Positions 4,495 to 42,561 of a DNA stretch of 64,000 nucleotides are shown here, piece after piece. The stretch is from Candidatus Xenobia bacterium. GTDB taxonomy: Bacteria; Acidobacteriota; Terriglobia; Acidiferrales; 2-02-FULL-67-57. Numbering within the stretch: position 1 is the stretch's first letter; each line of letters starts with the position of its first letter. The notes under the pieces are model-generated. The model did not search any database. It worked only from the letters and a program-made list of their open reading frames with translations, and was not told where the DNA came from. The stretch lies in NCBI GenBank assembly GCA_035573715.1, contig DATLZZ010000010.1, forward strand, positions 246,746-310,745, read 5' to 3'. The translations under genes were made by a program, and so were the position numbers.

Positions 4495-4498
4495 GATT

Positions 4499-4570
4499 GG
4501 CCACCAAGTCACAAAGACACAAAGCAGTGATGGTCGCGTTCTTCCTTTGTGCCTCCGTGTCTTTGTGGCC
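4499..4570. repeat. Imperfect inverted repeat built from tandem CACAAAG-type units
   Basis: Left arm is GGCCACCAAGTCACAAAGACACAAAG. Right arm is CTTTGTGCCTCCGTGTCTTTGTGGCC, with complementary termini GGCCAC/GTGGCC. It starts 5 nt after the gdh stop. Its architecture matches the 7360-7459 element. Confidence 0.6.
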
Positions 4571-5387
4571 CGCCCCCTTGTCGGCGCAGAAGCCGGTGGA
4601 CCGCGTGGAACTCGAGTATCGCCCACCGACGCTGCTGGTGGAAGCCAAGGTGAACGGCAAGGGGCCGTTCTGGTTCGCCTTCGATACCGGCGCCAGCACC
4701 AGCCTGATTGACGCTCGCGTGTCACAACGGCTGAAGCTGAAGCCCGAGCAGCGGCCCGATCGCGAAGGGCCGTACTTCACCCGCGCGCGCACGCTGGCGG
4801 TGGGGAGAGCTAAGGCGCGCGACTTGGAACTGGTCATCCGCGACTTCGCGCCGCTCTCGGAGCGCATCGGGCGCGAGGTGGCCGGCATCGTCGGCTACAA
4901 CTGGATGGAGCAGTTTGTGTTTGAGATTGATTACCGCAGCCTTCGGCTGACCATTTGGCCAAGCACCACAGAACTCATCCCGCGCGCGGACCAGTTTCCT
5001 GTGCCGCTCGAGCTGCGCTCGGTGCGCGGCCTCACCGGCGCCATCATTTATGTCCCGGCGCAGATGGAAGGCAAGCACCGCTGTCCGGCGGAAATTGACA
5101 CCGGAACCGACCTGGGAATACTCGGGCGGCAGATGGCGCTGGAGCTCGGCGTGGACGTCAACCGGCTCGGCGGGCAGCGGGAGCGCCCGCGGCATGAGGT
5201 GCGGCGGCTCGATGTCGCCGGGCGCACTTATGCGAATGTGCCCTTCTACGTCGACCCGCGCCGGGGCGCCGACGCCAATCCCTACGCCCAGTGCATCCTC
5301 GGCAACGAGGTGCTGAAAGAGTTTGTGCTGACAATTGACATCCCGCGCCGCCGCGCCTTCTTTCGCTGGCGACTGCCGCCGCCTTAG
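4530..5387 (+). CDS. Retropepsin-like aspartyl protease with two DTG lobes; start uncertain
   Basis: Two catalytic-type motifs, FAFDTGAS and AEIDTGTD. With ATG 4530 the N-terminus MVAFFLCASVSLWPAPLSAQ resembles a signal peptide, but it is encoded by the right arm of the 4499-4570 inverted repeat. The track uses TTG 4497. Confidence 0.7.
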   Translation: MVAFFLCASVSLWPAPLSAQKPVDRVELEYRPPTLLVEAKVNGKGPFWFAFDTGASTSLIDARVSQRLKLKPEQRPDREGPYFTRARTLAVGRAKARDLELVIRDFAPLSERIGREVAGIVGYNWMEQFVFEIDYRSLRLTIWPSTTELIPRADQFPVPLELRSVRGLTGAIIYVPAQMEGKHRCPAEIDTGTDLGILGRQMALELGVDVNRLGGQRERPRHEVRRLDVAGRTYANVPFYVDPRRGADANPYAQCILGNEVLKEFVLTIDIPRRRAFFRWRLPPP

Positions 5388-5440: not shown

Positions 5441-6337
5441 ATGCCTGAGACTCTCAGTCCCGGAAAGCTGAAAACCGAGGACGAGCACCGCCGCGACATC
5501 TGCCTGGTCGGCCGCTGGATTCACGCCCGCGAGTACGTGGCCGCCACCGACGGCAACCTTTCGGTGCGGCTGGACAACCAGCGGGTCCTGGCCACGCCGA
5601 CGCTGATGTCGAAAGGCATGATGGAGCCCGACGACCTGGTGGTGGTCGATTACCAGGGCAACAAGCTCAGCGGGCGGCGCAACGCCTCCAGCGAAATCGC
5701 CATGCATCTGCTGATTTATCGTCGCCGCCCCGACGTGAACGCCGTCGTGCATGCTCACCCGCCCACCGCCACCGGCTACGCCGCCGCCGGGCTGGCGCTC
5801 AACCAGGCGCTCATCAGCGAAGTGGTGCTGGCGCTGGGCTGCATCCCGCTGGCGCAGTACGGCACGCCCGGCACGCCGGAGCTGTCCGATGCGTTGAGCC
5901 CGCTGGTCGGCAGCTACGACGCCCTGCTGATGGCCAACCACGGCGTCGTCACCTACGGCACCGACCTGCTCACCGCCTACATGCGGATGGAGACGGTGGA
6001 GCACTTCGCGCGCATTTCGCTGGTGACGCATCTGCTTGGCCGGCAGGTGCTGCTTTCCCGCGAGGAGGTGGAGAAGCTCGGCGAAGCGCGGCAGAAGTAT
6101 TTCGGCAGCCTGGGAGCGCCGGTGGCGCCGCTGACGGAGTCCTGCCCGGTGGCGGCGAATCCTTCGCCGCCGCCGGCCGTGGCTTCCCCTCCGGCGACGG
6201 AGCGGAAGCCGGCCCACCCGTCCGCGGGCGGACGGATTGGATCGGTGCCTCGCGGCCCGCGGGACCGTCTCTGGGTGACGCAGGACGAGCTTGAAGCTCT
6301 CATTGACGAAGCCGTGAAATCTGGTAGAGTTCGCTAG
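5441..6337 (+). CDS. Class II aldolase/adducin-family protein (fuculose/rhamnulose-1-phosphate aldolase-like) with C-terminal extension
   Basis: Catalytic and metal motifs SSEIAMH, VVHAHPP and MANHGVV. The aldolase domain ends near residue 220. It is followed by a Pro/Ala-rich linker and the terminal helix [19 protein letters not shown]. Confidence 0.85.
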
Positions 6338-6654: not shown

Positions 6655-6753
6655 GCGCGCTGCTCCCTCCGCCCAGCGGCCACGGCCGCTGGGCCGCGCG
6701 GCCTTGTCGGGAGGGCACGACTCTTGTTGTGCCGTTCCGCGGGTTCTTTCTGT

Positions 6754-6767
6754 GGGGCTTTAGCCCC
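6754..6767. repeat. GGGGCTTTAGCCCC hairpin motif (member of the dispersed repeat family)
   Basis: 5-bp stem with TTTA loop, followed by TGAGGGTTTTT. The same string GGGGCTTTAGCCCCTGA recurs at 13112-13128. A variant GCGGCTTTAGCCGCTGA lies at 10221-10237. Confidence 0.6.
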
Positions 6768-6785
6768 TGAGGGTTTTTCAAGCCT

Positions 6786-7361: not shown

Positions 7362-7459
7362 CCACAGATTCACACAGATGAACACAGATAAGGAACGCCG
7401 ACAAAAGCAGGGACTGTTTGTGTTTTTCCTCTGTGTGTATCTGTGTGCATCTGTGGTTT
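7360..7459. repeat. Inverted repeat whose arms each hold three 10-nt-periodic CACAGAT units
   Basis: Left arm AACCACAGATTCACACAGATGAACACAGAT (7360-7389). Right arm CTCTGTGTGTATCTGTGTGCATCTGTGGTT (7430-7459), a near-perfect reverse complement. The loop is about 40 nt. It sits between BMC-P2 and BMC-P3. Confidence 0.8.
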
Positions 7460-7469
7460 CGAATTCTCC

Positions 7470-7739
7470 ATGCTGATTGGCAGAGTCATCGGCGAGGTGT
7501 GGGCGACGCAGAAGACGCCCTCGCACGAGGCGCGCAAGTGCCTCTACGTGCAGCCGCTGGCGCTCGACGGCGCCGACCGCGGCGACCCGATCCTGGCGCT
7601 CGACGCGGTGGATGCCGGCGTGGGCGACCGCGTGCTGGTGGTCACTGAAGGCTACTCGGCCATGACGGCGGTGGGCCGCCCCAATTCGCCCATCGATATG
7701 GCCGTCGTCGGCGTCGTCGACGCGGTCGAGCTCGACTAG
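7470..7739 (+). CDS. BMC-P pentamer/vertex protein, paralog 3
   Basis: I start at ATG 7470, giving MLIGRVIGEVWATQKTPSHEARKCLYVQPL...ALDAVDAGVGDRVLVVTEGYSA...DMAVVGVVDAV. The track start at 7443 lies inside the repeat arm. Confidence 0.88.
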   Translation: MLIGRVIGEVWATQKTPSHEARKCLYVQPLALDGADRGDPILALDAVDAGVGDRVLVVTEGYSAMTAVGRPNSPIDMAVVGVVDAVELD

Positions 7740-8411: not shown

Positions 8412-9482
8412 ATGGGGAAGAGAAAGGAAGCCATCGAGGTCCGGCCGGCGGCGCCGCATCCGAGCGGAATTCTCTCGGGCGCGGCGCTGGACGACGACCG
8501 GCAATTCGAAGCCTCGGTCCGCCCGCAGCTTCTCAAGGACTTCATCGGCCAGGCGAAATTGAAGGAGAATCTCTCCATCGCTGTCGAAGCCGCGCGCTCG
8601 CGGGGTGATGCGCTCGACCACGTCCTGCTCAGCGGTCCGCCCGGCCTCGGCAAGACCACGCTCGCCTACGTGCTCGCCAACGAGCTGGGCGTGCGCATCG
8701 AAACCACCTCGGGGCCGGTGCTGGAGCGCCCGCTCGACCTCTCGACCATTCTCTCCGTGCTGGAGCGCCGCCAGGTGCTGTTCATTGACGAACTCCACCG
8801 TCTGTTGCCGGCCGTCGAAGAGATCCTTTATCCGGCGCTCGAAGATTTCAAAATCGACATGATTGTCGGCAAGGGTCCGGGCGCGCGCACGCAGGTCTAT
8901 CGCCTGGAGCGGTTCACGCTGGTGGGGGCGACGACCCGCACCGGGCTGGTCACCAAGCCGCTGCTCTCGCGCTTCGGGATCGTGCATCGGCTGGACTTTT
9001 ATCCCGTGGCCGACCTCCAAACCATTGTTACGCGCGCCGCGGGCATCCTGGGCATCGCGATTGACTCCGGCGGCGCGGAAGAGATTGCCCGGCGCTCGCG
9101 CGGCACCCCGCGCGTTGCCAACCGGCTGTTGCGGCGGGTGCGCGACTTCGCCCAGGTGCGCGCCGGCGGCAGCATCAACCGCACCGTGGCCAGGGACGCG
9201 CTGGCGATGCTGGATGTGGACGAGTACGGGCTCGACGAGCTTGACCGAAAGATTCTCTTGACGGTAATCGAAAAATACGGCGGCGGGCCGGTCGGTCTCA
9301 ACACCATCGCCGCCTCCATCAGCGAAGAGGCCGACGCGCTGGAAGAAGTCTACGAGCCCTACCTGATGCAGATTGGGTTCCTGAACCGCACCCCGCGCGG
9401 GCGGGTTGCGACCGAGCTGGCCTACAAACACTTCGGGAAGCTGCCTCCTACCCCCAGCGCTCCCCCCCTCTTCAGCTCCTAA
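8412..9482 (+). CDS. ruvB: Holliday junction DNA helicase RuvB
   Basis: Walker [23 protein letters not shown], and conserved TTRTGL.T.PL.SRFG. Confidence 0.95.
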
Positions 9483-9589
9483 CGCCTCCTTTTTACAAGT
9501 TTTTTACAAATGTTCACACTGCCGGTGTTTACTTGGCCCCGCGGCCTGGGTTCTAATCGGCGCGCCCAAAAAGGGGCGGGAGGAACGAA

Positions 9590-9955
9590 ATGAGGAATCG
9601 AATCCTGGCACTAGGTGTGGTGATGCTCTTGGCGGTCTCCGTGGCGTACGCCGGCGGCGACTCCAAGGGTGGCAAGATGGATCCGGCGGCGAAAGCGGCC
9701 TGGTTCCAGAAGGAGTTCGGGCTGACTGACACCCAGACCCAGCAGGTGCGAGCGTTGATCGAAGACACGCACGCGCGCTACGAGCAGGTCAAGACGCAAG
9801 GGCTCAGCGAGGAGGCGACGAAGGCGGAGAAGACCAAGATCAAGGCCGAGCACGACGCCAAGCTCAAGTCCATCCTCACCGCGGAGCAGTGGGCCAAGTT
9901 CGAGGCCTACCGCGCCGAGCACTACAAGAAGGAACAAGCCTCCAAGAAGCAGTAA
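9590..9955 (+). CDS. Periplasmic Spy/CpxP-like (LTxxQ motif) protein
   Basis: Signal peptide MRNRILALGVVMLLAVSVAYA. Two LTxxQ-type motifs (LTDTQTQQ, LTAEQWAKF). Small, helical and Lys/Glu-rich. GGGAGG RBS. Confidence 0.6.
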   Translation: MRNRILALGVVMLLAVSVAYAGGDSKGGKMDPAAKAAWFQKEFGLTDTQTQQVRALIEDTHARYEQVKTQGLSEEATKAEKTKIKAEHDAKLKSILTAEQWAKFEAYRAEHYKKEQASKKQ

Positions 9956-9972
9956 CCGACTCGTCGGTTCGA

Positions 9973-10011
9973 ACGGCGAGGGCGCCGGAGGGCCCCTCGC
10001 CGTTTTTTTTG
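9973..10011 (+). terminator. Rho-independent terminator after the Spy-like gene
   Basis: 10-bp stem ACGGCGAGGG (9973-9982) pairs with CCCTCGCCGT (9994-10003). The loop is 11 nt. A run of eight T follows. Confidence 0.8.
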
Positions 10012-10124
10012 TAAACCTCGCATTGCCTCCGAGCAGTGGACGAAGCTCGCCGCCTGGCGAGCGGAGAGGCCCAAGCAGCAAGCACAGGACAAACCCCAGC
10101 AATAATCCTCGCTTGAAGTCCATT

Positions 10125-10164
10125 TGCGGCGAGGAATCCCGCTCCATCGGGATTCCTCGCCGCA
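10125..10164. repeat. Perfect long hairpin (15-16 bp stem)
   Basis: GCGGCGAGGAATCCC (10126-10140), loop GCTCCATC, then GGGATTCCTCGCCGC (10149-10163). There are no mismatches and a T/A pair flanks the stem. Confidence 0.85.
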
Positions 10165-10173
10165 TTTGTCTTT

Positions 10174-10244
10174 GGAAGGGCGGGGTTTGAACCCCGCCGT
10201 TGCAAGGCGCAAGCCGCAAGGCGGCTTTAGCCGCTGAAGCCATC
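10174..10244. repeat. Dispersed two-hairpin repeat unit, copy 1
   Basis: GGAAGGGCGGGGTTTGAACCCCGCCGT...GCGGCTTTAGCCGCTGAAGCCATC aligns with the copies at 12980-13062 and 13066-13135. Confidence 0.75.
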
Positions 10245-10361
10245 CCTCGACCCGCAGGTTGCCCGCAGGCAACGTGCGCGCCCTCTCCCATGCGTTCCGA
10301 TGCGTTCCGGACGCATGAACCATGGGGGGCAGGGCATAGGCCTGCCGGGCCGGGAAGCCGC

Positions 10362-10367
10362 TACAAT
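10362..10367 (+). promoter_or_regulatory. Candidate -10 box (TACAAT), 7 nt upstream of the folK GTG
   Basis: GCTACAATAGGCGCTGTG. No Shine-Dalgarno in between, so a leaderless transcript is possible. Confidence 0.3.
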
Positions 10368-10374
10368 AGGCGCT

Positions 10375-10875
10375 GTGGCGCCTTGTTTCAAAACTGCGTT
10401 TCTCTCTCTAGGCTCGAACCTGGGAGACCGTGTGGCGCACATCGAGCGGGCGCTGGCCGCGCTCTCGCAGACTGATGTACTGGTTCTTCGCCGCTCCTCG
10501 CTCTATGAAACTGAGCCGGTTGGCACCAACGCGCAGCGCTGGTTTGTGAATTGCGTCGTGGAGGTGGAAACCGAACTCATGCCGCTGGCGCTGCTGCGTC
10601 TGCTCAAGCGCATCGAGCGCGAAATGGGAAGGAATCCGGGCGCCGGCGCGCAGCCGGTTGCGCGATCGATTGACCTGGACATTCTTGCCTACGGGCAATT
10701 GGTGGCGAACTCACCGGAACTGACCATCCCGCACCCGCGACTGGCCGAGCGCCGCTTTGTGCTCGAGCCGCTGCGCGAGCTGGCGCCCGATTGGCGCCAT
10801 CCCGTCACTCGCCTGAGCGTGGCCGAGATGTTGGTTGCCCTGCGCGATTCCGCCACCGTGCGCCGACTACGCTAG
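10375..10875 (+). CDS. folK: 2-amino-4-hydroxy-6-hydroxymethyldihydropteridine diphosphokinase (HPPK)
   Basis: AFLSLGSNLGDR...SSLYETEPVG...RSIDLDILAYG...LTIPHPRLAERRFVLEPL. I start at the in-frame GTG 10375. The track start at 10300 would put 25 codons inside repeat sequence. Confidence 0.85.
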   Translation: MAPCFKTAFLSLGSNLGDRVAHIERALAALSQTDVLVLRRSSLYETEPVGTNAQRWFVNCVVEVETELMPLALLRLLKRIEREMGRNPGAGAQPVARSIDLDILAYGQLVANSPELTIPHPRLAERRFVLEPLRELAPDWRHPVTRLSVAEMLVALRDSATVRRLR

Positions 10876-12032
10876 TGCCGGCGGCGCTGCATCGGCCGCG
10901 GCTCTTCTGCCGGCGGCGCCCACTTGCCCGAGCGCGCACCTTCCTTGCGCAGCTTGTTGAAGTGCAGCAGCGGCTCGCTGCGCTCGGTCAGCGAGGCGAG
11001 TTGAAAAATGCTGTAGCGCGGCGACTCAATCTGCACCAGGCGATACTCGCCCGGCTCGACTTCGATAATCTGTTTGCCCTGCTGCTCGCTGAGGAAGCGC
11101 TCGGCGTCGGCCACCGAGGCGCGCGCGTCCTCATAGGCCGGCACGCTCATCGCCTCCACCACGTAACTCCGCAGCAGCTTCGGCCAGTAGCGCTGGAACA
11201 AGCTCGAATCGGCGAACAGGTCGGCCCACACCACTTCGCCGTTGATGGCCACGACGACGCCGACCACGTTCTTGCCTTGCAGCGCGCCGCGCAGGGCTCG
11301 CTCGTACTCGCGCTGCAGGTTGGCGCTGGCGTCGTCAATGTGACGCTTGATGGTCGGCGAGGCTTCCATTTGCGCGTAGCTGCTCGACCCTTGCAGCTCG
11401 CGCTCTACCCGGCCGGGCTCCGCGCTCGGAACCGCGGCCGCGGCCACGCCCGAGCGCGACTCGGCCGTGGCGTCCCACACCTGCTGCTGGTTGCGCGCCA
11501 CGGCCGCTTTCTCGCGCACCTTGGGCGCCGCCATCAGGCTGGCGCCGAAACTTGCCGAGGCGCCGTGCCAGCGCCCGGGCTCGACGCAGAACACATCCAG
11601 CGGCAGCGGGTCGCCGCCCGGCGGGATGACGCGGTCCCTGGAAATCACCCGGTCCTGCTTGCCGCCGGTGACGATTTCCCCGGCCAGCAATATCAGCGGG
11701 CGGCTGGAGTGATTGATGAGCACCAGGCGGTTCACCTGCGCCTGGCCGAGCGGCAGCGAGCCGTGCCGCCGTCGCTGCAGCGCCGCGCCGAGCTCGGTCA
11801 CCTCGACTTCGCCCGAGCGCAACCCTTCGTCCAGCGTCAGGTAGTTGCGCGCATCGTGTTGGGCAGAGCTCGATACTGGAAACAACGCCAGGTTGGAGTA
11901 GAGAATCGGCGGGTGAACTTGCCAGTCGCGAACCTTCGGGATGCCCGCCGCAGCGGGTGGGCTGTCGTAGGTCAGAACCACCGTTGCCGCCGCGACAACG
12001 AAAACCAAAACCGGAAACCATCGTTTCAACAT
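10872..12032 (-). CDS. DUF6569 (ARPP-1-like) domain protein with N-terminal membrane anchor
   Basis: Start at ATG (complement 12030-12032), giving MLKRWFPVLVFVVAAATVVL. The core reads NLALFPV...YLTLDEGLRSGEVEVTEL...VNRLVLINHSSRPLILLAGEIVTGGKQDRV...PLDVFCVEPGRW. This matches my memory of the DUF6569 signature (YLTLDEA...V.E....G.V..L...N....PVLLL.GE...G.KQNR...PV.CVE.GRW). It needs an HMM check. Confidence 0.6.
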   Translation of the reverse strand: MLKRWFPVLVFVVAAATVVLTYDSPPAAAGIPKVRDWQVHPPILYSNLALFPVSSSAQHDARNYLTLDEGLRSGEVEVTELGAALQRRRHGSLPLGQAQVNRLVLINHSSRPLILLAGEIVTGGKQDRVISRDRVIPPGGDPLPLDVFCVEPGRWHGASASFGASLMAAPKVREKAAVARNQQQVWDATAESRSGVAAAAVPSAEPGRVERELQGSSSYAQMEASPTIKRHIDDASANLQREYERALRGALQGKNVVGVVVAINGEVVWADLFADSSLFQRYWPKLLRSYVVEAMSVPAYEDARASVADAERFLSEQQGKQIIEVEPGEYRLVQIESPRYSIFQLASLTERSEPLLHFNKLRKEGARSGKWAPPAEEPRPMQRRRH

Positions 12033-12220
12033 GAATTCGTCCTCCCTCTTTCGCCCCCGGCGTATCGGCCGAGGCGGGCCCCAGTCGGCGCGCTTCGTTG
12101 TGATGCCCGTCCCAGGAGGTGAGCGCGCCCGGGGCCCGCGACCGGCCCCTTGCACCTCTGCTATCGCCGCCGGCCGAGGAAAGTTCCCGGCTGTGCTCTT
12201 TTCATCTCTGCTGACTTGGG

Positions 12221-12226
12221 TATAAT
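12221..12226 (+). promoter_or_regulatory. Candidate -10 box (perfect TATAAT) for the deoxynucleoside kinase gene
   Basis: CTTGGGTATAATCCC lies 39 nt upstream of ATG 12265. GGGAGG RBS at 12256-12261. Confidence 0.4.
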
Positions 12227-12264
12227 CCCGGCGCTGGTGTCGGGTTCAGGAAGTCGGGAGGTCC

Positions 12265-12921
12265 ATGGGAACCGGGCCCAAGTTTGCGCCGCCCCGCTAC
12301 ATTGCTGTCGAAGGCCCCATCCGGGTCGGGAAGTCCACCCTGGCGCGCATCGTTTCGGAAAAGCTTCACGCGCGGCTCATCGCCGACCGCACCGACAATC
12401 CCCATCTCGCGGCGTTTTATCGCAGCGAGCCCGGCGCCGCCTTTCGCGCTCAGATGCACTTTCTGCTGGCGCGCTACCTCCAGTTGCGCGACCTGGCGCT
12501 CGAGCACGACCCCCGCACCATCGTCTGCGATTACCTCTTCGAGAAAGACCGCGTCTTCGCCACCCTCAACCTCAACGACGCCGAGCTTCAGGTCTACCAG
12601 CAGTACTTCGACCTCTTCCGCCCGCAGGTCGCGACGCCCGACCTGGTTATCTATCTGCAAGCCACGCCGGCGGTGCTGCGCAAGCGCCTGAAGCGCAGCC
12701 CGGCCGCCGCCTCCGAGCGCGACATCTCCGACGACTACCTCGAAGCCGTCGCCGAAGCCTACGACCATTTTTTCTTCCACTACTCGGCGTCGAACCTTCT
12801 CGTCATCAACACCAGCGAGATTGATTTCGTCGAGCGCTCCGAAGATTTGCAGGCGCTTCTTCGCCGCCTCGGCGAGCCCGTCAAAGGCACTCAGTACTTC
12901 CTCCCCCTCGGCCCGTCGTAA
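12265..12921 (+). CDS. Deoxynucleoside kinase family protein
   Basis: P-loop IAVEGPIRVGKSTLA. dNK-type pattern (DNP.L..FY, FEKDR.FA, LVIYL.A.P..L..R...R). 218 aa. Confidence 0.8.
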   Translation: MGTGPKFAPPRYIAVEGPIRVGKSTLARIVSEKLHARLIADRTDNPHLAAFYRSEPGAAFRAQMHFLLARYLQLRDLALEHDPRTIVCDYLFEKDRVFATLNLNDAELQVYQQYFDLFRPQVATPDLVIYLQATPAVLRKRLKRSPAAASERDISDDYLEAVAEAYDHFFFHYSASNLLVINTSEIDFVERSEDLQALLRRLGEPVKGTQYFLPLGPS

Positions 12922-29528: not shown

Positions 29529-30920
29529 TCAGAGACCTGAGTAGGTATTCCGCTTGAGGAAGCGCCCGGCACCCGGTTTGCCGACGAACTTTCCGTTGTC
29601 AATCACGACGCGGCCGCCCACCAGCACTTGCCGCGGCATCCCTTTCACTTTGATGCCCTCGAACATCGAGTAGTCCACCCGCATGTGGTGCGTCTTGGCG
29701 CTGATGACTTCTTCCTTGTCGGGATCCCACAGCACCAGGTCGGCGTCGGAGCCGACCGCGATGGTGCCTTTGCGGGGGTAGAGCCCGAAGAGTTTCGCCG
29801 GCGCGGTGGAAACCAGCTGCACGAAGCGGTTGATGTTGAACCGCCCGCCGCCCACCCCGCCGGTGTAGACCAGGCTCAAACGGTGCTCGATTCCCGGTCC
29901 GCCGTTGGGAATCTTGGTGAAGTCGTCCCTGCCCATCTCCTTCTGTTCCTTGAAGCAGAACGGGCAGTGGTCGGTGGAGACGACTTGCAGGTCATCTTTC
30001 GCCAGGCCCGCCCAAAGCTTGTCCTGGTGCCACTTTTCGCGCAGCGGTGGCGTGAAGACGTACTTGGCTCCTTCGAAGCCCGGCACGTCGAAGTTGTCGA
30101 TCGAAAGGAAGAGGTACTGCGGGCAGGTTTCGGCGTAGGCGGGCAGGCCGCGGTCGCGCGCCTCGCGCACCTTCTCCAACGCGTCGTTGCAGGAGAGGTG
30201 AACGATGTAGACGGGCGCCCCGGCCATCTCGGCCAGCGCAATGGCCCGCGCAGTGGCTTCAGCCTCGGCGGTCGTCGGGCGCGTCAGCGCATGATACTTG
30301 GGCGCTGTCTTGCCCTCCGCCAGCGCCCGCTTGACGATGACGTCAATCGCTCCGCCGTTTTCGGCGTGCATGCAAATCAGGGCCCCGCTCTTCGCTGCCT
30401 GGCTCATCGCCTTGAAGATGAGCGCGTCCTCCACCATGAAGACGCCCGGGTAGGCCATGAACAGCTTGAAGCTCGACACGCCCTCTTGCACCAGCGCGTC
30501 CATCTCTTCCAGCCGCGCGTCCGGCAGGTCGGTCACGATGCAATGGAAGGCGTAGTCGGTCACCGCCTTGTTGTGCGCCTTCTTCATCCAGGTGTCGAAC
30601 GCCTCGCGCAGCGTCTGGCCCTTGTACTGGATGGCGAAGTCAATCAGCGTCGTCGTGCCGCCGTGGGCGGCGGCGATGGTGCCGCTCTCAAAATCATCGG
30701 CGCTGGTAGTGCCGCCGAAGGGCATGTCAAGGTGGGTGTGAACGTCGATGCCACCGGGCATGACGTAAAGCCCGCGGGCGTCGAGCACCTGCTTGGCCGA
30801 CTCGCGCGGCAAGCTGGCGGCAATGGCGGCGATGCGGCCGTCGCTCAGACCGATGTCGGATGCGTAGGTGTCGGACGCGGTGACGACGGTGCCGCCCTGA
30901 ATCAGCGTGTCAAATTGCAT
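29529..30920 (-). CDS. Dihydropyrimidinase / D-hydantoinase
   Basis: MQFDTLIQGGTVVTA...GGIDVHTHLDMPFGGT...DDFESGT.AAA.GGTT..IDF...FK.FMAY; 463 aa. Confidence 0.92.
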   Translation of the reverse strand: MQFDTLIQGGTVVTASDTYASDIGLSDGRIAAIAASLPRESAKQVLDARGLYVMPGGIDVHTHLDMPFGGTTSADDFESGTIAAAHGGTTTLIDFAIQYKGQTLREAFDTWMKKAHNKAVTDYAFHCIVTDLPDARLEEMDALVQEGVSSFKLFMAYPGVFMVEDALIFKAMSQAAKSGALICMHAENGGAIDVIVKRALAEGKTAPKYHALTRPTTAEAEATARAIALAEMAGAPVYIVHLSCNDALEKVREARDRGLPAYAETCPQYLFLSIDNFDVPGFEGAKYVFTPPLREKWHQDKLWAGLAKDDLQVVSTDHCPFCFKEQKEMGRDDFTKIPNGGPGIEHRLSLVYTGGVGGGRFNINRFVQLVSTAPAKLFGLYPRKGTIAVGSDADLVLWDPDKEEVISAKTHHMRVDYSMFEGIKVKGMPRQVLVGGRVVIDNGKFVGKPGAGRFLKRNTYSGL

Positions 30921-30972
30921 GTTCGTCTCCCCTGCGGTGCGAGCGTATGGTAGTGGCGCGCCCGCAGAGGTG

Positions 30973-30990
30973 TCAACGCAGATGCGTTGA
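30973..30990. promoter_or_regulatory. Palindrome TCAACGC-AGAT-GCGTTGA in the divergent dihydropyrimidinase/preT promoter region (candidate operator)
   Basis: Perfect 7-bp arms with a 4-nt spacer. It overlaps a TTGATG -35-like hexamer (30987-30992) and lies upstream of a TAGAAT -10-like hexamer (31012-31017). Confidence 0.35.
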
Positions 30991-31034
30991 TGCGCGCGCG
31001 AGGCGCTGTGCTAGAATCCGCTCCACGAGCGGCC

Positions 31035-32375
31035 ATGCGGGAAACAGCCCCCAAGCTGACGCCGGAGCAGTATGAGCGCAACTTTGCCGACATCGCCCCG
31101 CCGCTCACCCGCCAGCAGGCGCTGCTCGAAGGCGCCCGCTGCCTCTTCTGCTACGACGCGCCCTGTATTCAGGCCTGCCCCACCCGCATTGATGTTCCTT
31201 CGTTCATCAAGAAGATCCTCACCGGCAATCTGAAGGGTTCGGCGCGGGTCATCCTCAGCGCCAACATCCTCGGCCAGAGCTGCGGGCGCGTTTGCCCGAC
31301 GGAGGTGCTGTGCGAAGGCGCCTGCGTGCTCAATCGCGAGGGCGAAAAGCCGGTTGAGATTGGCCGCCTGCAGCGCTACGCCGTGGACTATGTGCTCGAG
31401 AACAACATCCGCGTGCTTCACGCCGGCGCCAGAAACGGCAAGCGAGTGGCCTGCATCGGCTCGGGGCCGGCCTCGCTCGGCTGCGCCTCCGAGCTCGCCC
31501 AGCGCGGCTACGAGGTTGTTATTTACGACAAGAACGAGCTCCCCGGCGGTCTCAATACCTATGGCATTGCCGCCTACAAGACTCGGGCGCACGAGAGCGT
31601 GCGCGAGGTGAAACTGGTCGAAGACCTCGGCGTGAAGATTCACCAACGCGTCGAGGTGGGCAGGGACATCTCTCTCTCCGAACTGGAGGCCAAGTTCGAC
31701 GCCATCTTCATCGGCATCGGCCTGGGAGAGACCTGGGCGCTCGACCTGCCGGGAGAAGACCTGCGCGGCGCCTTTGGGGCCATGGACTTTATCGAGCGCA
31801 CCAAGAAGGAACCCTTCCACAAGGTCGACGTCGGCAAGCGCGTCGCCGTCATCGGGGCGGGGAACACAGCCGTCGACGTCGCCACAGCGGCGCGGCGCCT
31901 GGGAGCGGAGTGGGTGGCGATGATTTATCGCCGCGGCGAGCGCGAGATGCCGGCGTTCAAGTACGAGCGCGAACTGGCGCAGAAAGACGGGGTGACATTC
32001 ATGTGGAACACCCAGCCGGTGCGCATCGTCGGCAACGGCGTGGTCGAGGGGCTGGAGTGCGTGCGCACGCGGCTGCACGGTGACGGCCGCCGCGCCCGCG
32101 TCGAGCCCATCCCCGGCACCGAGTTCACCCTGCCGGTGGAAATGGTCGTGCGGGCGCTGGGTCAGCAGCCGGTGCTCGAGCTGCTCCGCAGTGTTTCGGG
32201 CATCCTGATCAAAGACGATTGTGTGGTTGTTGACCCCGACACTGGCCAGACAGGGAACCCGAAGTACTTCGCCGGCGGCGACTGCGTTAACGGCGGCAAG
32301 GAGGTGGTGGACGCTGTGGCGGAGGGCATGAAAGCGGCCAGAGGAATCGATGCGTACTTACGCAGGGCAAGCTAG
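31035..32375 (+). CDS. preT: NAD-dependent dihydropyrimidine dehydrogenase subunit PreT (GltD-like)
   Basis: ATG 31035. Fe-S motifs CLFCYDAPCIQACP and CGRVCPTEVLCEGAC, followed by the FAD/NAD fold CIGSGPASLGCA. Confidence 0.88.
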   Translation: MRETAPKLTPEQYERNFADIAPPLTRQQALLEGARCLFCYDAPCIQACPTRIDVPSFIKKILTGNLKGSARVILSANILGQSCGRVCPTEVLCEGACVLNREGEKPVEIGRLQRYAVDYVLENNIRVLHAGARNGKRVACIGSGPASLGCASELAQRGYEVVIYDKNELPGGLNTYGIAAYKTRAHESVREVKLVEDLGVKIHQRVEVGRDISLSELEAKFDAIFIGIGLGETWALDLPGEDLRGAFGAMDFIERTKKEPFHKVDVGKRVAVIGAGNTAVDVATAARRLGAEWVAMIYRRGEREMPAFKYERELAQKDGVTFMWNTQPVRIVGNGVVEGLECVRTRLHGDGRRARVEPIPGTEFTLPVEMVVRALGQQPVLELLRSVSGILIKDDCVVVDPDTGQTGNPKYFAGGDCVNGGKEVVDAVAEGMKAARGIDAYLRRAS

Positions 32376-32383
32376 GAGGCGTC

Positions 32384-33670
32384 ATGGCGGATCTTAGTAT
32401 CAACCTGGCAGGAATCAGGAGCCCGAATCCGTTCTGGCTGGCGAGCGGGCCACCGACCAACACCGGTGGGCAGGTAATGCGCGCCTTCGAAGCCGGCTGG
32501 GGCGGCGCGGTGTGGAAGACGGTGGGCGAGCCCATCATCAACACCGTCTCGCGGTACGGCGGCATCGACCTCGGCCCGCAGAAGCTGATGGGACTGAACA
32601 ACATCGAGCTCATTAGTGACCGGCCGATTGAAACCAACCTGCGGGAGATCGCCGAGGTCAAGAGGCGCTTCCCCAGGCACGCGGTGGTCGTGTCGCTGAT
32701 GGTGGAGTCGAGGCGCGAGGTCTGGCACGACATCGTCAAGCGCACCGAAGCCACCGGCTGCGACGGGCTGGAGCTCAACTTCGGCTGTCCGCACGGCATG
32801 AGCGAGCGCGGCATGGGCTCGGCGGTGGGCCAGGTGCCCGAGTACACCACCATGATCACCGAGTGGGTGAAAGAGGTGGCGCGCACGCCGGTGCTTATCA
32901 AGCTCACCCCGAACTGCACCGATGTGGCCCGCATGGCGGAAGCCGCGGCGCAGGGCGGCGCCGACGGTATCTCGCTCATCAACACCCTCAATAGCGTCAT
33001 GGGAGTGGATCTCGACACCTTCGCGCCACGGCCCGCGGTGCGCGGCTGGTCGTCACACGGCGGCTACTGCGGCCCGGCGGTCAAGCCGATTGCGCTCCAC
33101 ATGGTCTCGGCCTGCGCCAAGCGTGTGCGCATTCCCATCAGCGGCATTGGCGGCATTTCGACCTGGCAGGACGCGGCCGAGTTCCTCGCGTTGGGCGCGA
33201 CCTCGGTTCAGGTGTGCACCGCGGTGATGCATTACGGCTTCCGCATCGTCGAAGACATGATAGATGGGCTGGCGAATTACCTTGATGCGAAGGGCTTCGC
33301 CAGCGTCAACGACCTGCGCGGGCGCGCCCTCGACAATGTGCGCGATTGGGGCGAGCTCGACCTCAACTACAAAATCATCGCCACGATTGACCCCGCGAAA
33401 TGCATCGGCTGCCACCTCTGCTACGTTGCCTGCGAGGACGGCGCCCACCAATGCATAGAAGAATACCCCGCCGGCGGCAACGGCGGGATGCGCGTCCCGC
33501 GCGTGATTGAAGACGAGTGCGTCGGCTGCAATTTGTGCGCGCTGGTCTGCCCGGTCGAAAGCTGCATCACGATGACGGAAGTAGAGACGGGCAAGTCGCC
33601 GATGTCGTGGAACGACCTGATGAAGCAGGGCGGCCAGTCGCCCGGTTGCGCGCTGCCCTCGGGCGACTAG
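32384..33670 (+). CDS. preA: NAD-dependent dihydropyrimidine dehydrogenase subunit PreA (DHOD-like domain plus 2x[4Fe-4S])
   Basis: NLAGIRSPNPFWLASGPPTN...LNFGCPHGM...SLINT, with a C-terminal ferredoxin part CIGCHLCYVACEDG and CVGCNLCALVCP. Confidence 0.9.
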   Translation: MADLSINLAGIRSPNPFWLASGPPTNTGGQVMRAFEAGWGGAVWKTVGEPIINTVSRYGGIDLGPQKLMGLNNIELISDRPIETNLREIAEVKRRFPRHAVVVSLMVESRREVWHDIVKRTEATGCDGLELNFGCPHGMSERGMGSAVGQVPEYTTMITEWVKEVARTPVLIKLTPNCTDVARMAEAAAQGGADGISLINTLNSVMGVDLDTFAPRPAVRGWSSHGGYCGPAVKPIALHMVSACAKRVRIPISGIGGISTWQDAAEFLALGATSVQVCTAVMHYGFRIVEDMIDGLANYLDAKGFASVNDLRGRALDNVRDWGELDLNYKIIATIDPAKCIGCHLCYVACEDGAHQCIEEYPAGGNGGMRVPRVIEDECVGCNLCALVCPVESCITMTEVETGKSPMSWNDLMKQGGQSPGCALPSGD

Positions 33671-33691
33671 GCTCGAACGCTCCCAAAACTT

Positions 33692-35557
33692 GTGGATAGC
33701 CTGCCGAAGGAACTCGCCGCCGTTCACGCGCGCTGGGCACCGGTGGACGAGCGCGTGCGGGAAATCCTCGAAAACATTCAGCAAGCGTGCGCCGCCCGGC
33801 TGCCGGGGGAGGGCTGGAATCGGGCCAACGAGCGCCAGGTCGAGCGGTTCATTACTCAGCTTCGGGAAGATTTTCCCGGGCGCGTGTACGAAGTGGTACG
33901 CGGAGAGACGACCGATCCCCAGCAGAATGCGGAGCGCTGGGAGCAGGGACGTCGGCGCCGGGATGCGTCCTGCGTGGTGGTGGAGCGGCAGCGGTTGGGC
34001 CGCTGGGCCCTCCGCACCACGCAATGGAATTTCGTCTTCACCGTCCCCGGGGAAAGCCGCGAAACGTTTCTGCTGGTGGCGCACTACGACACCTGGCGCG
34101 GGCCGGGCGCCGATGACAACACTACGGGCGAAGAAGTGCTGAAGCAGTATCTGCTCGCCGACTTGCGCGCCGCCACCCGCCCGCGGCTGACGCACGTGTA
34201 TTTCCTCGCCGGCTCGGAGGAATGCGGCTTGGTCGGGCTGGCGTCGCAGTTGCTGTTGGCCGGCGGACTCATCGCCGCCATCCAGGCGTGGCTGCAAGGG
34301 GACTGGCTGTACGGTGCGATCGCGCTGGCGCTCTGCCCGCTGGCCAGCTACCGCTTCGGCGTCAGCGGCTCGCGCGAGTTCGTGCGGGCGCTCAAGCCCG
34401 AGGAGCTCAGCTCGATTCGCGCCGTCGTGTCCGTGGATTCGGTGGGCGAAGGCCGAATGTTCATCCCGCGCAGCACGCTGGGCGCCGACTTTATCCGCGC
34501 GCTCATTCCCTACGGCCACTACAGTGCCTTCACCGAAGTGCTGGAGGAGGGCGCGCACCTGCACGGGATCAAGTACAACAACTACCTGGCCGGAGGCACC
34601 ACCGACCATCTGTCTTTCATGGAGGTGAACAACGGCCTGTGGGCGCGCGCGCGCGATATCGTGGCGCGCGCCTGGGCGTGGGCAGCGGGACGAGAGCACA
34701 GGGCGGCGCGAGTAATCCCCGCTTCTGCTCTTGTTACGATGACGCCGGGTAAAGCCTCCCCAGTGGTTTTCGGGGGCAAGATTCACACAGCCAACGATGT
34801 CCCGGCTCGTGTTTATCCCGAGCCGCTGCGCGACGCGCTGCTGATTCTCGATTACGTGTTTCACATTGTTGAGGGTAACGCCCGCTTGCGAACCCCGCGG
34901 CGTCTCGAGGACTGCCATTACGCGCGTCTCTACGAAGTCAGCGCGGCCGGCAATGGCGGTGTCGAATACTGGCTCGCGCTGAAAGACGCGCTCGAGCCCA
35001 ACCGACGCAACCTCAACGTAATCTTTCGCGCCCACGCGGATGTCGATGCGGAAAGGAAAGAGGCGCGGGTGCGAGTGGGCGAGCCCGTCGGCTGGGGCGT
35101 CGAGTCACGTCTGCGCGAGGAAGTAGCCAAGCAGTGTCGCAAGCGCGGCAAGAAGTATCGGCGAGTGCGCATGGACAAGTTGGTGGTGACCGACGGGGAG
35201 CACGAGATGACGTTCGGGCGTCAGCTGACATTCGCCGACCACCTGCGACGCCTCTACCATCGCTGGGCGGGACGCCTGGGCCGCCTGGCCGGCCGTTTCA
35301 GCTTTCTGACTTTCCTCGGCGTTGCCTACGCGCTGGCCTGGGTGATTGGTCGGGCCTTGGAGTGGGGCTTCGACTACCGCTACGCCTTTCAGGAGTGGTT
35401 CTTCCGCTACCAGATTTGGACTGTTTCAGTAGTCCTGGTTTTTCAGTTGGCGGTTCTTGGCTATCTGATGGCGCGCGCCATTCCCGCCTGGATTGATAAC
35501 CACTACAAACACGACAACCGCGACGACAACATGGGCAGCCTGCGCAAACTCTCGTAG
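33692..35557 (+). CDS. Membrane-embedded M28-family metallopeptidase-like protein
   Basis: GTG start. M28 ligand motifs appear in order: HYDTW, GADDNTTG, GSEECGLVG, VDSVGEG, GGTTDHLSF. A hydrophobic segment (LLLAGGLIAAIQAWLQGDWLYGAIALALCPLASY) is inserted after the EE motif. The C-terminus has TM helices (FSFLTFLGVAYALAWVIG, IWTVSVVLVFQLAVLGYLMA). Confidence 0.65.
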   Translation: MDSLPKELAAVHARWAPVDERVREILENIQQACAARLPGEGWNRANERQVERFITQLREDFPGRVYEVVRGETTDPQQNAERWEQGRRRRDASCVVVERQRLGRWALRTTQWNFVFTVPGESRETFLLVAHYDTWRGPGADDNTTGEEVLKQYLLADLRAATRPRLTHVYFLAGSEECGLVGLASQLLLAGGLIAAIQAWLQGDWLYGAIALALCPLASYRFGVSGSREFVRALKPEELSSIRAVVSVDSVGEGRMFIPRSTLGADFIRALIPYGHYSAFTEVLEEGAHLHGIKYNNYLAGGTTDHLSFMEVNNGLWARARDIVARAWAWAAGREHRAARVIPASALVTMTPGKASPVVFGGKIHTANDVPARVYPEPLRDALLILDYVFHIVEGNARLRTPRRLEDCHYARLYEVSAAGNGGVEYWLALKDALEPNRRNLNVIFRAHADVDAERKEARVRVGEPVGWGVESRLREEVAKQCRKRGKKYRRVRMDKLVVTDGEHEMTFGRQLTFADHLRRLYHRWAGRLGRLAGRFSFLTFLGVAYALAWVIGRALEWGFDYRYAFQEWFFRYQIWTVSVVLVFQLAVLGYLMARAIPAWIDNHYKHDNRDDNMGSLRKLS

Positions 35558-35560
35558 GCG

Positions 35561-36667
35561 TTAATGCAATCGTTCCATCGCGAGGGCAGCCACGGAGCGG
35601 GCGAGCGAGGCCGCGGCCGTGAGTCCCGGGGACTCGATGCCGACCAGATGGATGATCTGCGGGAAGCGCGGATCGGGCTCGACTACAAAGTCCTTGATGC
35701 CGCGGTGGCCGGGCGGCGCCAGCTTTGCTCGCAAGCCGGAGTAGCCGGGGCGCAGGTCGTCCGGTTGAAGTTGTGGCAGCAGCTTCTGCGCTCGAGCGCA
35801 GAACGACTCGCGCGGTTCGAGGTCGTGTTCGTAGTCGTCCTTGCGCTCGACGTAGCGCGCGTTGGGGCCAAGCAGCAGCGTTCCCCAGAGCGTCTTCGTG
35901 AAATGCACCCCAAGGCTGAGTCCGCTCGGGTCGGGCGCCGGATAAACAAGCCCGGTCACGAGGTGGGCCTTTTCCGGCGCCACTTCCCAGTACTCTCCGC
36001 GGCAGGGATAGATTGTGTAGTTGTTGTTTCCAGCCATGGCTGCCACTTCGTCGGCGAAAAGTCCGGCGGCGTTGACGAGTACGCGCGCTGCAATCTCGCC
36101 CACGTTGGTCGCTACCGCGCGCACGAGGTCGCCTTGTGGCTCGAGACGCTCCAGGCGCGCCTCGGTGGCGATGTAGGCGCCGCGAGATTGGGCCAGCGCC
36201 GCGAAAGCCTTGACGAGCCACTCGCTTTCCACGAGGCCGGTTGAGGGCACCCAGAGCGCGGCGCGGCCGGCTATGTGCGGCTCGCGCGCCTTGAGTCCCG
36301 CGCTCGAGAGCATCTCCAGGCCTTTCACACCGTTTTCCCGGCCGCGCTCCCGAAGCGCTTGCAGCTCGCTCTCTTCCTCAGGCGTGGTGGCCACAACAAT
36401 TTTTCCGGTGCGCTTGCAGGGAACGTCGTGGGCGGCGCAGAACTCATAAGTGAGCCGGTTGCCTTCGACGCAGTGGATGGCTTTGAGCGAGCCGGGGGTA
36501 TAGTAGATGCCGGAGTGGATGACGCCGCTGTTGCGCGTGCTGGTGAGCATTCCCACGCGCGGCATTTGTTCGAGCACGAAGACGTCGCTCGTGCGCGCCG
36601 CCAGCTCGGCGGCGATGGCGCAGCCGACAACCCCTCCTCCGACAATCACGACGCGGGCCTGTTCCAC
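35561..36667 (-). CDS. lhgO: L-2-hydroxyglutarate oxidase-like FAD-dependent oxidoreductase
   Basis: VVIVGGGVVGCAIAAELA...SGVIHSGIYY.PGSLKA...YPCRGEY...VGIESPGLTA. Confidence 0.7.
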   Translation of the reverse strand: MEQARVVIVGGGVVGCAIAAELAARTSDVFVLEQMPRVGMLTSTRNSGVIHSGIYYTPGSLKAIHCVEGNRLTYEFCAAHDVPCKRTGKIVVATTPEEESELQALRERGRENGVKGLEMLSSAGLKAREPHIAGRAALWVPSTGLVESEWLVKAFAALAQSRGAYIATEARLERLEPQGDLVRAVATNVGEIAARVLVNAAGLFADEVAAMAGNNNYTIYPCRGEYWEVAPEKAHLVTGLVYPAPDPSGLSLGVHFTKTLWGTLLLGPNARYVERKDDYEHDLEPRESFCARAQKLLPQLQPDDLRPGYSGLRAKLAPPGHRGIKDFVVEPDPRFPQIIHLVGIESPGLTAAASLARSVAALAMERLH

Positions 36668-36676
36668 AAGACCTTC

Positions 36677-37408
36677 CTACCGCCCGGCAAAGGTAAACGG
36701 CAAGCGGAAGAGTTGCGACACGCGGCGGATGTGGAAGCGGGCACGCTCAGCGGGTCGCGCCGGGCGGGCGCGGGCAAACTCGCCCCCGACACGGCGCACC
36801 GCCCACATCCCGAGCTCGCGGGCGGCGCGGATTTCGCTGTCGGGTCGATCGCCGACGACCAGCACGCGGCGCGGGTTCGGTTCGTGGCGCAGCAGGCGAC
36901 GCAGGCGCTGCTTCTTGCCCCGGCCGCCGGTCAGCCCCGTGTAGAGGATGCGGCGCACGTAAGGCGAGCGGTCGAGGCCGAGAATGCGTGTCTTGGCGCG
37001 CTGGATGCGGAGGTGGCCGGCAGTGATGATATAGATGCGGACACCCAGCCGATGCAGGCGGCGCAGCGTGGGCATGGTGTCCGGAAACAAGCGCAGGTTG
37101 CGGACCGGAAGGCTGAAGTAGGCGTCGCGCCCGACGTGCGCCAGATGGCGCCCGACCTGCCCGCCGACTTTGAGGCGGGCGAGGAGGCGGCGGTCGAGCG
37201 TGTCGAGGTTCCGCTCTTCGCGAAAAAGTCGAAGCCTGAGAGCAGTGAGAGAGCGCAGCGTGAGGCGGCGTCGCGCGTGGCGGTTCAATCCAGCCTCCAG
37301 AAGCTTCCGGCTGGCGTAGCGGTGGGCTTCCAGAACCCGCTGGCGGAAGCAGTCATAGAGGGTGTCGTCGAGGTCGAAGACCACGGTGGTGATTCGCGGT
37401 CGGGGCAT
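36677..37408 (-). CDS. HAD-superfamily hydrolase
   Basis: Motif I VVFDLDDTLY and motif IV VVGDRPDSEI. The stop of the upstream NCS1 gene abuts its start. Confidence 0.75.
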   Translation of the reverse strand: MPRPRITTVVFDLDDTLYDCFRQRVLEAHRYASRKLLEAGLNRHARRRLTLRSLTALRLRLFREERNLDTLDRRLLARLKVGGQVGRHLAHVGRDAYFSLPVRNLRLFPDTMPTLRRLHRLGVRIYIITAGHLRIQRAKTRILGLDRSPYVRRILYTGLTGGRGKKQRLRRLLRHEPNPRRVLVVGDRPDSEIRAARELGMWAVRRVGGEFARARPARPAERARFHIRRVSQLFRLPFTFAGR

Positions 37409-38824: not shown

Positions 38825-38845
38825 CGGGTTGGTGTCGGCAATCCG

Positions 38846-40348: not shown

Positions 40349-40369
40349 GATTGCTATCGAGCCTCCTTC

Positions 40370-41662: not shown

Positions 41663-42561
41663 TTGGCGGCAGCGTCGGAGCGGGCCGCGGCTTCGGTTTG
41701 CGAGATGGGGCCGTAGCTTTCCGGCCGGCGGTCGCGGAAGAACTGCCAGGTGGCCCGCACCTGGCTGATCATGTCGAGGTCGAGGTCGGCGACGAGGGCT
41801 TCGTCGTTGTCGCGGCTGGCCTGGGCGAAAATCTTTCCGCGCGGGTCGCAGAAGTAGCTCTTGCCGTAGAACTCGCCGATGTCCCAGGGAGTTTCGTGGC
41901 CGACGCGGTTGATGGCGCCGACAAAGTAGCCATTGGCCACGGCGTGCGCGGGCTGCTCGAGCTCCCAGAGGTGCTCTGAAAGGCCGGCCACCGTGGCCGA
42001 GGGATTGAACACAATCTCAGCGCCGTTCAGCCCGAGGATGCGCGCCCCCTCGGGGAAGTGGCGGTCATAGCAAATGTAAACGCCGATGCGGGCGTACCGC
42101 GTCTGAAACACCGGATAACCGAGGTTGCCGGGCGTGAAGTAGAACTTCTCCCAGAATCCCGGGTGGCAGTGCGGGATGTGGTGCTTGCGGTACTTGCCCA
42201 GGTAGCGGCCGTCGGCGTCAATCACCGCGGCGGTGTTGTAAAACACGCCCGCCTGCTCGACTTCGTAGACCGGCACCACCATCGCCATTTTGTGCTTCTT
42301 TGCCAGGCGCTGCGCCCACTGCGTGGTGGGGCCGGGGACGGGCTCGGCGATGTCGTACCATCGAGTCTGCTGCTCGGCGCAGAAGTAGGGTCCGTAGAAA
42401 AGCTCCTGCAGGCAGAGGATCTTGGCGCCCTTGCGCGCCGCCGGGGCGATGAGTTTTTCGTGCTTGGCGATCATCGCCTTCTTGATCTTTTCCAGCGGCA
42501 TCCTGGCCGGCGACCACTCGCAGCGCGCCTGAATCAATCCGCAACGAACCACCCGTGGCAT
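41659..42561 (-). CDS. Beta-ureidopropionase (nitrilase-superfamily N-carbamoyl-beta-alanine amidohydrolase)
   Basis: LCLQELF.GPYFC...YRKHHIP...YICYDRHFPE...FNPSAT. The 4-nt overlap with the next gene suggests coupling. Confidence 0.88.
   Translation of the reverse strand: MPRVVRCGLIQARCEWSPARMPLEKIKKAMIAKHEKLIAPAARKGAKILCLQELFYGPYFCAEQQTRWYDIAEPVPGPTTQWAQRLAKKHKMAMVVPVYEVEQAGVFYNTAAVIDADGRYLGKYRKHHIPHCHPGFWEKFYFTPGNLGYPVFQTRYARIGVYICYDRHFPEGARILGLNGAEIVFNPSATVAGLSEHLWELEQPAHAVANGYFVGAINRVGHETPWDIGEFYGKSYFCDPRGKIFAQASRDNDEALVADLDLDMISQVRATWQFFRDRRPESYGPISQTEAAARSDAAAN

Follow-up and report, generated by a model that had tools for sequence, protein, structure and literature searches.

Does the C-terminal tail of a class II aldolase encoded beside bacterial microcompartment (BMC) shell genes carry the enzyme into the compartment that those genes build? 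The question arises in a stretch of 64,000 nucleotides, hereafter the window, from the acidobacterium Candidatus Xenobia bacterium (assembly GCA_035573715.1, contig DATLZZ010000010.1, forward strand, positions 246,746 to 310,745). There, an aldolase of 298 amino acids ends in a 77-residue extension and its gene is followed by one gene for a shell hexamer (BMC-H) and three for pentameric vertex proteins (BMC-P). A reading made from the letters alone, the sequence-only reading, had likened the extension to a linker carrying an encapsulation peptide. We find it likely that residues 222-298 are an extension of the encapsulation-peptide type that delivers the enzyme to the compartment encoded by its neighbours. 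New here are the retention of the helix under selection with or without shell genes, a Cys-Pro motif coupled to the shell and a minimal module of five genes.

The aldolase matches the Pfam family Aldolase_II (PF00596) over residues 19-193 (E 7e-47), and its metal ligands H104, H106, H167 and E85 are invariant in an alignment of 97 homologues. It fell under the cut-off of every NCBIfam equivalog. The best solved relatives are fuculose-phosphate aldolases, aligned across residues 16-220. Solved homologues are mostly of 200-313 amino acids, two adducin chains of more than 720 excepted; their alignments stop by about query residue 220, and none of the solved class II aldolases was found to cover the tail beyond that point. 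The free-standing L-fuculose-1-phosphate aldolase FucA (PDB 6btd, 4c24, 1fua) shares the fold of residues 16-220, and its zinc-ligand histidines and glutamate are kept in the window aldolase, but FucA stops at about 215 amino acids, without linker or terminal helix. Because neither the solved structures nor Pfam reach further than about residue 220, the fold ends where the sequence-only reading had put it. The limits given there for the extension, 6104-6334, are exact: codon 222 starts at nucleotide 6104, and codon 298, the last before the stop, ends at 6334.

The tail has three parts, not two. Directly after the fold comes a conserved segment (residues 222-238): no exception to C235 or P236 occurred in either of two alignments, of 45 and of 97 homologues, and V237 was kept in at least 90% of the sequences. 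This is followed by a tether of about 37 residues (239-275; 27% Pro, 38% Gly/Ala/Ser), which varies among homologues in sequence and in length, from about 10 to about 80 residues. The third part is a conserved terminal module (residues 276-298). Residues 222-276 had been described as one low-complexity linker. Composition over nearly the same span (residues 221-276, 56 amino acids) is indeed 23% Pro and 37.5% Gly/Ala/Ser, and the description stands for residues 239-275 but fails for residues 222-238, with their conservation and invariant Cys235-Pro236. High-G+C DNA yields many long spurious open reading frames (ORFs), and a tail produced by chance low-complexity read-through or by a frame artefact of a G+C-rich genome was considered for that reason. 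The probability of such an origin is negligible: more than 120 homologues share the tail, the ratio of nonsynonymous to synonymous substitution (dN/dS) is far below 1, and G+C at third codon positions of the aldolase gene is 0.85, as is typical of real genes.

Both of two AlphaFold2 runs predicted a helix at residues 281-297 and disorder over residues 231-274, with confidence (pLDDT) below 50 in the latter. Helix pLDDT was about 65 in the run with 45 sequences and 76 and 66 in the last two 10-residue blocks in the run with 97. Mean pLDDT of the whole protein was 55 and then 63, low because the alignments hold close relatives only, and the models support the secondary structure of the tail, not questions of docking between helix and core. 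The helical hydrophobic moment of the tail ranks third to fourth among about 285 windows of the protein and lies above 91-97% of same-residue shuffles. L284, L287, I288, A291 and V292 make up the apolar face. Residues 277-293 are 35% I/L/V and 41% charged or polar, and are free of proline. Among 97 homologues L284 is invariant and R276, E283, E285, E290 and A291 are at least 90% conserved; across 120 homologues the helix is near-invariant and the linker of the same proteins variable. The very strongly conserved consensus within this aldolase family is (D/E)R-x-x-(V/L)-(T/S)-R-x-E-L-E-A-L-(I/V)-(D/E)-E-A-V. The short helix with a hydrophobic pattern that had been read from the last 20 or so residues thus reappears in both the models and the hydrophobic moment, and helix propensity, whose absence had been named as the counterevidence to look for, is present in both runs.

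Some homologues depart from this plan. Two proteins of 257-260 amino acids (P0073 and P0074, on contigs of about 2 kb) stop just past the Cys-rich stretch (…CQCDLHGQHRGRPS), without the helix, and may be frameshifted or truncated variants. The C-termini of one clade (loci L012, L018, L023, L024, L033, L032, L065 and L071) carry a conserved (G)KRRW after the helix position; in L071, which is shell-adjacent, and L065, which is shell-less, CPVT and KRRW are kept and the helix is lost. The KRRW pattern hints at a second terminal motif.

The layout of the tail is already described, and to a specialist the window aldolase would not be surprising on that account. Aussignargues et al. (2015) found that 21 of 23 BMC-associated class II aldolases end in an encapsulation peptide about 17 amino acids long (range 12-17), with 34.2±8.4% I/L/V and 38.2±7.8% hydrophilic residues, behind a non-conserved linker of 23-81 amino acids (PMC4594438). 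We applied their criteria and those of Kinney 2012. Helix composition and linker length in the window lie inside the published ranges, and proline content is higher in the window. As in the PVM, PVM-like and GRM5 aldolases of that survey, an amphipathic helix of about 17 amino acids stands at the extreme C-terminus of a protein with a PF00596 domain and shell-gene neighbours. The window differs in that its organism is an acidobacterium, in the very strong conservation of the helix sequence within its relatives and in a "linker" that opens with an invariant Cys-Pro, which that paper does not discuss. That linker plus helix is the layout by which BMC cargo is targeted, as the sequence-only reading held, agrees with the published aldolase encapsulation peptides (PMC4594438; PMC8217296). 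The plan is also widespread: in a search of 1.84 billion representative proteins (50% identity), which carries neither taxonomy nor gene context, many divergent class II aldolases shared the order of fold, often a Cys-rich stretch, linker and terminal amphipathic helix.

The window gene is linked to the shell genes in operon-like fashion, with 20 nt between the aldolase stop codon and the BMC-H ATG. In a genome scan of 79 species-representative loci (here numbered with L), we extended the aldolases to their stop codons and sought shell genes 10 kb to each side; with two truncated loci excluded and the window included, 78 species-level loci were informative. Nearly all 79 loci and all named protein matches come from metagenome-assembled genomes (MAGs) of Acidobacteriota or Terriglobia; identities of 77-90% point to the same origin for the window. 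Helix and adjacent shell genes occurred together in 30 loci, the window among them. Both were absent in 24, whose aldolases end at 214-254 amino acids. Shell genes were accompanied by a helix-less aldolase in one locus, L071, and the helix was present with no shell gene within 10 kb in 23. The helix is therefore found in 30/31 shell-adjacent aldolases and absent in 24/47 shell-less ones (Fisher p = 4e-6, uncorrected for phylogeny). We counted the first two classes and L071 as predicted by an encapsulation peptide; the class with helix and without shell genes is not predicted. The tail had been said to tie the enzyme directly to the adjacent shell genes. The 20-nt linkage and the 24 helix-free shell-less aldolases bear this out, but the 23 helix-bearing loci do not. 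The same 23 loci go halfway towards the other counterevidence that had been named, the same tail on aldolases of genomes that lack BMC genes.

In 22 of the 23 shell-less helix-bearing loci, the aldolase is followed at a short distance by ruvA, which matches the gene order of the window, and most have GDH just upstream. On a neighbour-joining tree of the catalytic core, shell-less helix-bearing proteins fall into at least 3-4 groups interleaved with shell-adjacent ones, which indicates repeated loss of shell genes; it looks as if these genes were lost in place at least 3-4 times independently.

One such locus, L050, reads at 8674-12578 as the GDH-aldolase-ruvA-ruvB region of the window with the four shell genes cleanly absent. 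The same layout occurs in L057, L035, L040, L022, L025, L028-L031, L034, L036 and L038, and also in L039, L041, L042, L045, L049, L055, L066 and L068. A single weak tblastn match in the gaps between aldolase and ruvA (E 0.006) was antisense and was dismissed as a shell remnant.

Purifying selection acts on the helix at the protein level. We estimated dN/dS by the Nei-Gojobori method (NG86) on codon alignments, taking codons 279-293 as the helix; synonymous differences are near saturation (pS ~0.6). The ratio was 0.06 for the helix and 0.07 for the catalytic core in shell-less clade III, 0.16 and 0.13 in shell-less clade I, and 0.12-0.22 and 0.11-0.16 in three shell-adjacent clades, so that helix values span 0.06-0.22 over the five clades. 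The low values in shell-less clades imply that the helix remains in use after loss of the adjoining shell genes: as judged from substitution patterns, selection on the protein maintains it in lineages without adjacent shell genes. Either of two explanations is possible. Shells may be encoded elsewhere in these genomes, since satellite arrangements are common in this BMC class, or the helix may have a shell-independent role, since the known clustering of cargo by encapsulation peptides would fit.

A second element of the tail, Cys235-Pro236, appears from its distribution to be linked to shell presence. The motif CP[VIL] occurs in 29/30 shell-adjacent but only 2/23 shell-less helix-bearing proteins (Fisher p = 1.6e-11, uncorrected for phylogeny), and among all 298 positions Cys235 best discriminates shell-adjacent from shell-less orthologues, in which Ser, Phe, Gly or Asp mostly replaces it. 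Cys134 relaxes as well, more weakly than Cys235, from 29/30 to 13/25; this residue, within LGCIPLA, lies six residues before Tyr140, which we take to align with the active-site loop of FucA. Relaxation at these two cysteines is unexpected if the shells merely moved elsewhere, and so the substitutions mildly favour a real functional change in the shell-less lineages. Cys235 and Cys134 may point to a disulfide, or to a metal or haem site, that matters only within a shell; it is speculation that Cys-Pro acts in redox chemistry or as a ligand of metal or haem.

Cysteine is frequent in other tails of this kind. Aldolase linkers were the most cysteine-rich of the encapsulation-peptide linkers in the 2015 survey (5.5%), the text of which never uses the word 'cysteine' (PMC4594438); for the Cys-Pro element and the Cys-rich linkers of microcompartment aldolases, published surveys list composition only, without interpretation. 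Many distant representatives carry CxxC-type clusters at the spot of the Cys-Pro. Among the homologues (numbered with P), extra Cys/His clusters stand in the linkers of P0035-P0055, P0059-P0071, P0075-P0104, P0274, P0297, P0303, P0313 and P0362; HTCACGNH, HHAGCGC, CHSCGGC and CVDCPDCGCP are examples. Such clusters suggest that a metal-binding element may be general in the tails of microcompartment aldolases.

How might the tail work? Encapsulation peptides aggregate cargo and also bind the grooves between shell tiles (PMC11585597). In the window protein, a disordered, proline-rich tether of about 37 residues would carry the 17-residue amphipathic helix, the apolar face of which would bind shell tiles, products of the four genes downstream, on their lumenal side. 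Alternatively or additionally, the helix would draw aldolase tetramers together into a cargo core, around which the shell then closes. In either case the aldolase, and the aldehyde that it releases, would come to lie inside the compartment. We infer this binding and encapsulation from the combination of tail anatomy, selection, linkage and the absence of the helix from more distant shell-less aldolases. Several results weigh against it. No BMC-H or BMC-P gene lies within 10 kb of 23 of the 53 helix-bearing orthologues whose flanking sequence was long enough. The aldolase stop codon is just 79-217 bp away from ruvA in L050, L057, L035 and L040, as reading of the ORFs confirmed for L050, and tblastn with 303 shell queries (E < 0.1) found no shell pseudogene remnants between aldolase and ruvA in 22 shell-less loci. 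Purifying selection on the helix is as strong as on the core in two large shell-less clades, and the shell-adjacent aldolase of L071 has no helix at all. When the window and 79 flanking regions were scanned for the motif in six frames, no second cargo with a similar helix came to light, though dissimilar encapsulation peptides would escape such a scan; the sole non-aldolase match was unrelated. AlphaFold confidence in the helix is moderate only (65-76), and our literature search found no experiments, on binding or otherwise, with any aldolase encapsulation peptide of the window type.

These points raise the alternative that the helix serves mainly a shell-independent purpose, such as self-association of tetramers, binding of a partner enzyme or regulation of the active site, with encapsulation secondary or absent and Cys235-Pro236 as the element coupled to the shell. 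Equal selection on helix and core in at least two large clades without shell genes at the same chromosomal position speaks for this alternative, as do the near-restriction of CP[VIL] to shell-adjacent proteins, the discriminating power of Cys235 and the weaker relaxation of Cys134, and encapsulation peptides do make proteins aggregate without shells (PMC4594438). The statistics on its side are, however, uncorrected for phylogeny, and the shell genes may sit elsewhere in the genome, satellite loci being common, as with the ACI aldehyde dehydrogenase. L032, moreover, keeps both Cys-Pro and helix outside the conserved gene order, without shell genes nearby; a disordered tether whose length ranges so widely, from about 10 to about 80 residues, is what targeting tags typically have, unlike docked structural elements; and more distant shell-less aldolases lack the helix entirely. 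On balance we regard this alternative as rather unlikely and favour encapsulation, possibly with a shell-independent role of the helix besides it. A more specific proposal, in which the job of the helix outlives loss of the shell genes, in shell-less assemblies or with another partner, and Cys235-Pro236 and Cys134 would be required only of an enzyme enclosed by a shell, say as a switch that responds to redox state, metal or haem, strikes us as doubtful. If it were true, repeated in-place deletion of four shell genes with the tagged cargo kept would be a natural experiment in organelle loss.

The end of the gene might instead be conserved for its DNA, with the last ten or so codons holding an internal promoter or an unstructured ribosome-loading zone rather than serving the protein. 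A promoter-like site (TTGACG-16-TAGAGT, with TG ahead of the second hexamer) does lie at 6303-6330 within the last tail codons, one of four such sites in 4.1 kb where 0.2 are expected. Five of the final six codons end in A or T (AAA TCT GGT AGA GTT), against the third-position G+C of 0.85 noted above, and L001 and L002, the nearest relatives, have the same hexamers. For the shell genes of the closest relatives, the site may act as a promoter within the coding sequence or as a zone where ribosomes load. Yet distant loci differ throughout their DNA (pS ~0.6) and keep the peptide motif, from which it follows that a DNA signal cannot explain conservation of the helix at large. Shell-less loci need no shell promoter and still keep the helix, and a signal of this kind would explain at most the final codons of the closest relatives. 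As the main reason for conservation it is very improbable.

Which known system does the locus resemble? Sutter et al. (2021) described the ACI type, found in Acidobacteria only, with a BMC-H, a triplet of BMC-P genes and an aldolase whose C-terminus carries an encapsulation peptide, and with its aldehyde dehydrogenase always on a satellite locus; they noted that metal binding may matter in ACI loci (PMC8217296, Supplementary Data 2). The type was reported mainly from subdivisions 4 and 6, and its aldolase is 'most similar to that of HO/MIC3' (PMC8217296). The window shares with ACI its acidobacterial origin, a PF00596 aldolase with a C-terminal tail, one BMC-H with standard motifs and three adjacent BMC-P genes. 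Unlike in ACI, no 2-hydroxyacid dehydrogenase (PF00389/PF02826) was found among 18 scanned window proteins, which are part of the window's ORFs; there is no room between 5441 and 7782 for the three-cysteine protein of about 80 amino acids that has its encapsulation peptide at the N-terminus; and the histidine-rich unknown protein is not in the window locus. Its five genes are wedged between GDH and ruvAB, and its relatives are mostly MAGs of Terriglobia or 'Acidoferrales'. Because the ACI dehydrogenase and unknown proteins are missing, we class the locus as a stripped module and not as a full ACI main locus. It resembles the HO-type satellite locus (Haliangium ochraceum-like) in its small size and in the pairing of BMC-P genes with a class II aldolase, but the HO type belongs to another phylum, and the window module includes a BMC-H of its own and a complete set of three BMC-P genes. 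PVM and PVM-like loci differ as well: they also encode an aldehyde dehydrogenase, a phosphotransacylase, an acetate kinase or a DeoR regulator, none of which adjoins the window module, and their hosts are Planctomycetes, Verrucomicrobia or Firmicutes as against Acidobacteriota for the window's relatives. By gene content, the window locus probably works like, and probably derives from, the aldolase modules of the ACI/HO type.

Taken alone, the tail confirms the textbook rule of microcompartment cargo tagging and adds little to it. The comparative pattern adds more: dozens of soil Acidobacteria share one chromosomal site, which in some holds the four shell genes and in others does not, and the tag helix is under selection in both states, which offers a direct route to asking what encapsulation peptides do besides binding shells. 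A module of one cargo, one hexamer and three pentamers is also an attractively minimal system for engineering.

Gene order in the window is GDH, aldolase, BMC-H with three BMC-P genes, ruvA, ruvB and folK (Table 1), and tblastn found no further BMC-H, BMC-P or aldolase genes in the 64 kb. Greedy longest-ORF calling gave many antisense artefacts in these G+C-rich loci, and locus content was read only from tblastn-anchored genes. The BMC-H protein matches an EutM-like NCBIfam model above its cut-off (147 bits), and its identity across related loci is 89-98%, with the single exception of the divergent protein of L071 (73%). For the third BMC-P gene the mechanical ORF, 7443-7739, opens at a GTG at 7443. 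The Pfam domain begins at residue 10 of this long ORF and tblastn homology to other BMC-P genes begins at 7470 (MLIGRVIGEV...), which makes the ATG at 7470 the probable true start.

Table 1. Position of the aldolase, the elements of its tail and the shell genes in the window.
Feature	Position	Strand	Basis
Class II aldolase gene, 298 aa and stop	5441..6337	+	ORF; Pfam PF00596
Cys134 codon	5840-5842	+	in LGCIPLA
Conserved post-fold segment, residues 222-238	6104..6154	+	alignments of 45 and 97 homologues
Invariant Cys235-Pro236	6143-6148	+	alignments of 45 and 97 homologues
Variable Pro/Ala/Gly/Ser-rich linker, residues 239-275	6155..6265	+	composition, variability, pLDDT <50
Conserved terminal module, residues 276-298	6266..6334	+	homologue conservation, AlphaFold2, hydrophobic moment
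Predicted amphipathic helix, residues 281-297	6281-6331	+	two AlphaFold2 runs
Shine-Dalgarno-like AGGAGG, 7 nt ahead of BMC-H start codon	6345..6350	+	direct sequence reading
BMC-H shell hexamer gene, 98 aa	6358..6654	+	Pfam PF00936 E 3e-30
BMC-P (EutN/CcmL) vertex gene 1, 100 aa	6786..7088	+	Pfam PF03319 E 7e-31
BMC-P vertex gene 2, 90 aa	7089..7361	+	Pfam PF03319 E 3e-26
BMC-P vertex gene 3, 89 aa from probable start ATG 7470	7470..7739	+	Pfam PF03319 E 1e-24

Within the 131 nt that separate BMC-H from BMC-P gene 1 is a terminator-like hairpin followed by a T-run (6753-6769), which could attenuate transcription and lower pentamer levels. Between GDH and the aldolase, at 4497-5387, lies an aspartyl-protease-like gene (PF13650) found only in the window, L001 and L002; in other relatives GDH is directly upstream of the aldolase. 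The module of aldolase, BMC-H and three BMC-P genes is tandemly duplicated in L023 (10001-16900), where the second BMC-H begins about 5.0 kb past the first aldolase and a second aldolase, of 284 amino acids, lies between both sets.

The window encodes a single aldehyde dehydrogenase (38846-40348, minus strand). It is free of terminal extensions and belongs to a pyrimidine/beta-alanine catabolic cluster at 29529-42561 that is unrelated to the microcompartment module. Pfam confirmed in this cluster a class III aminotransferase, a CN-hydrolase, the aldehyde dehydrogenase, a DAO-type oxidoreductase and a HAD hydrolase, and the ORFs at about 29.5-33.7 kb look like a dihydropyrimidinase and a dihydropyrimidine dehydrogenase.

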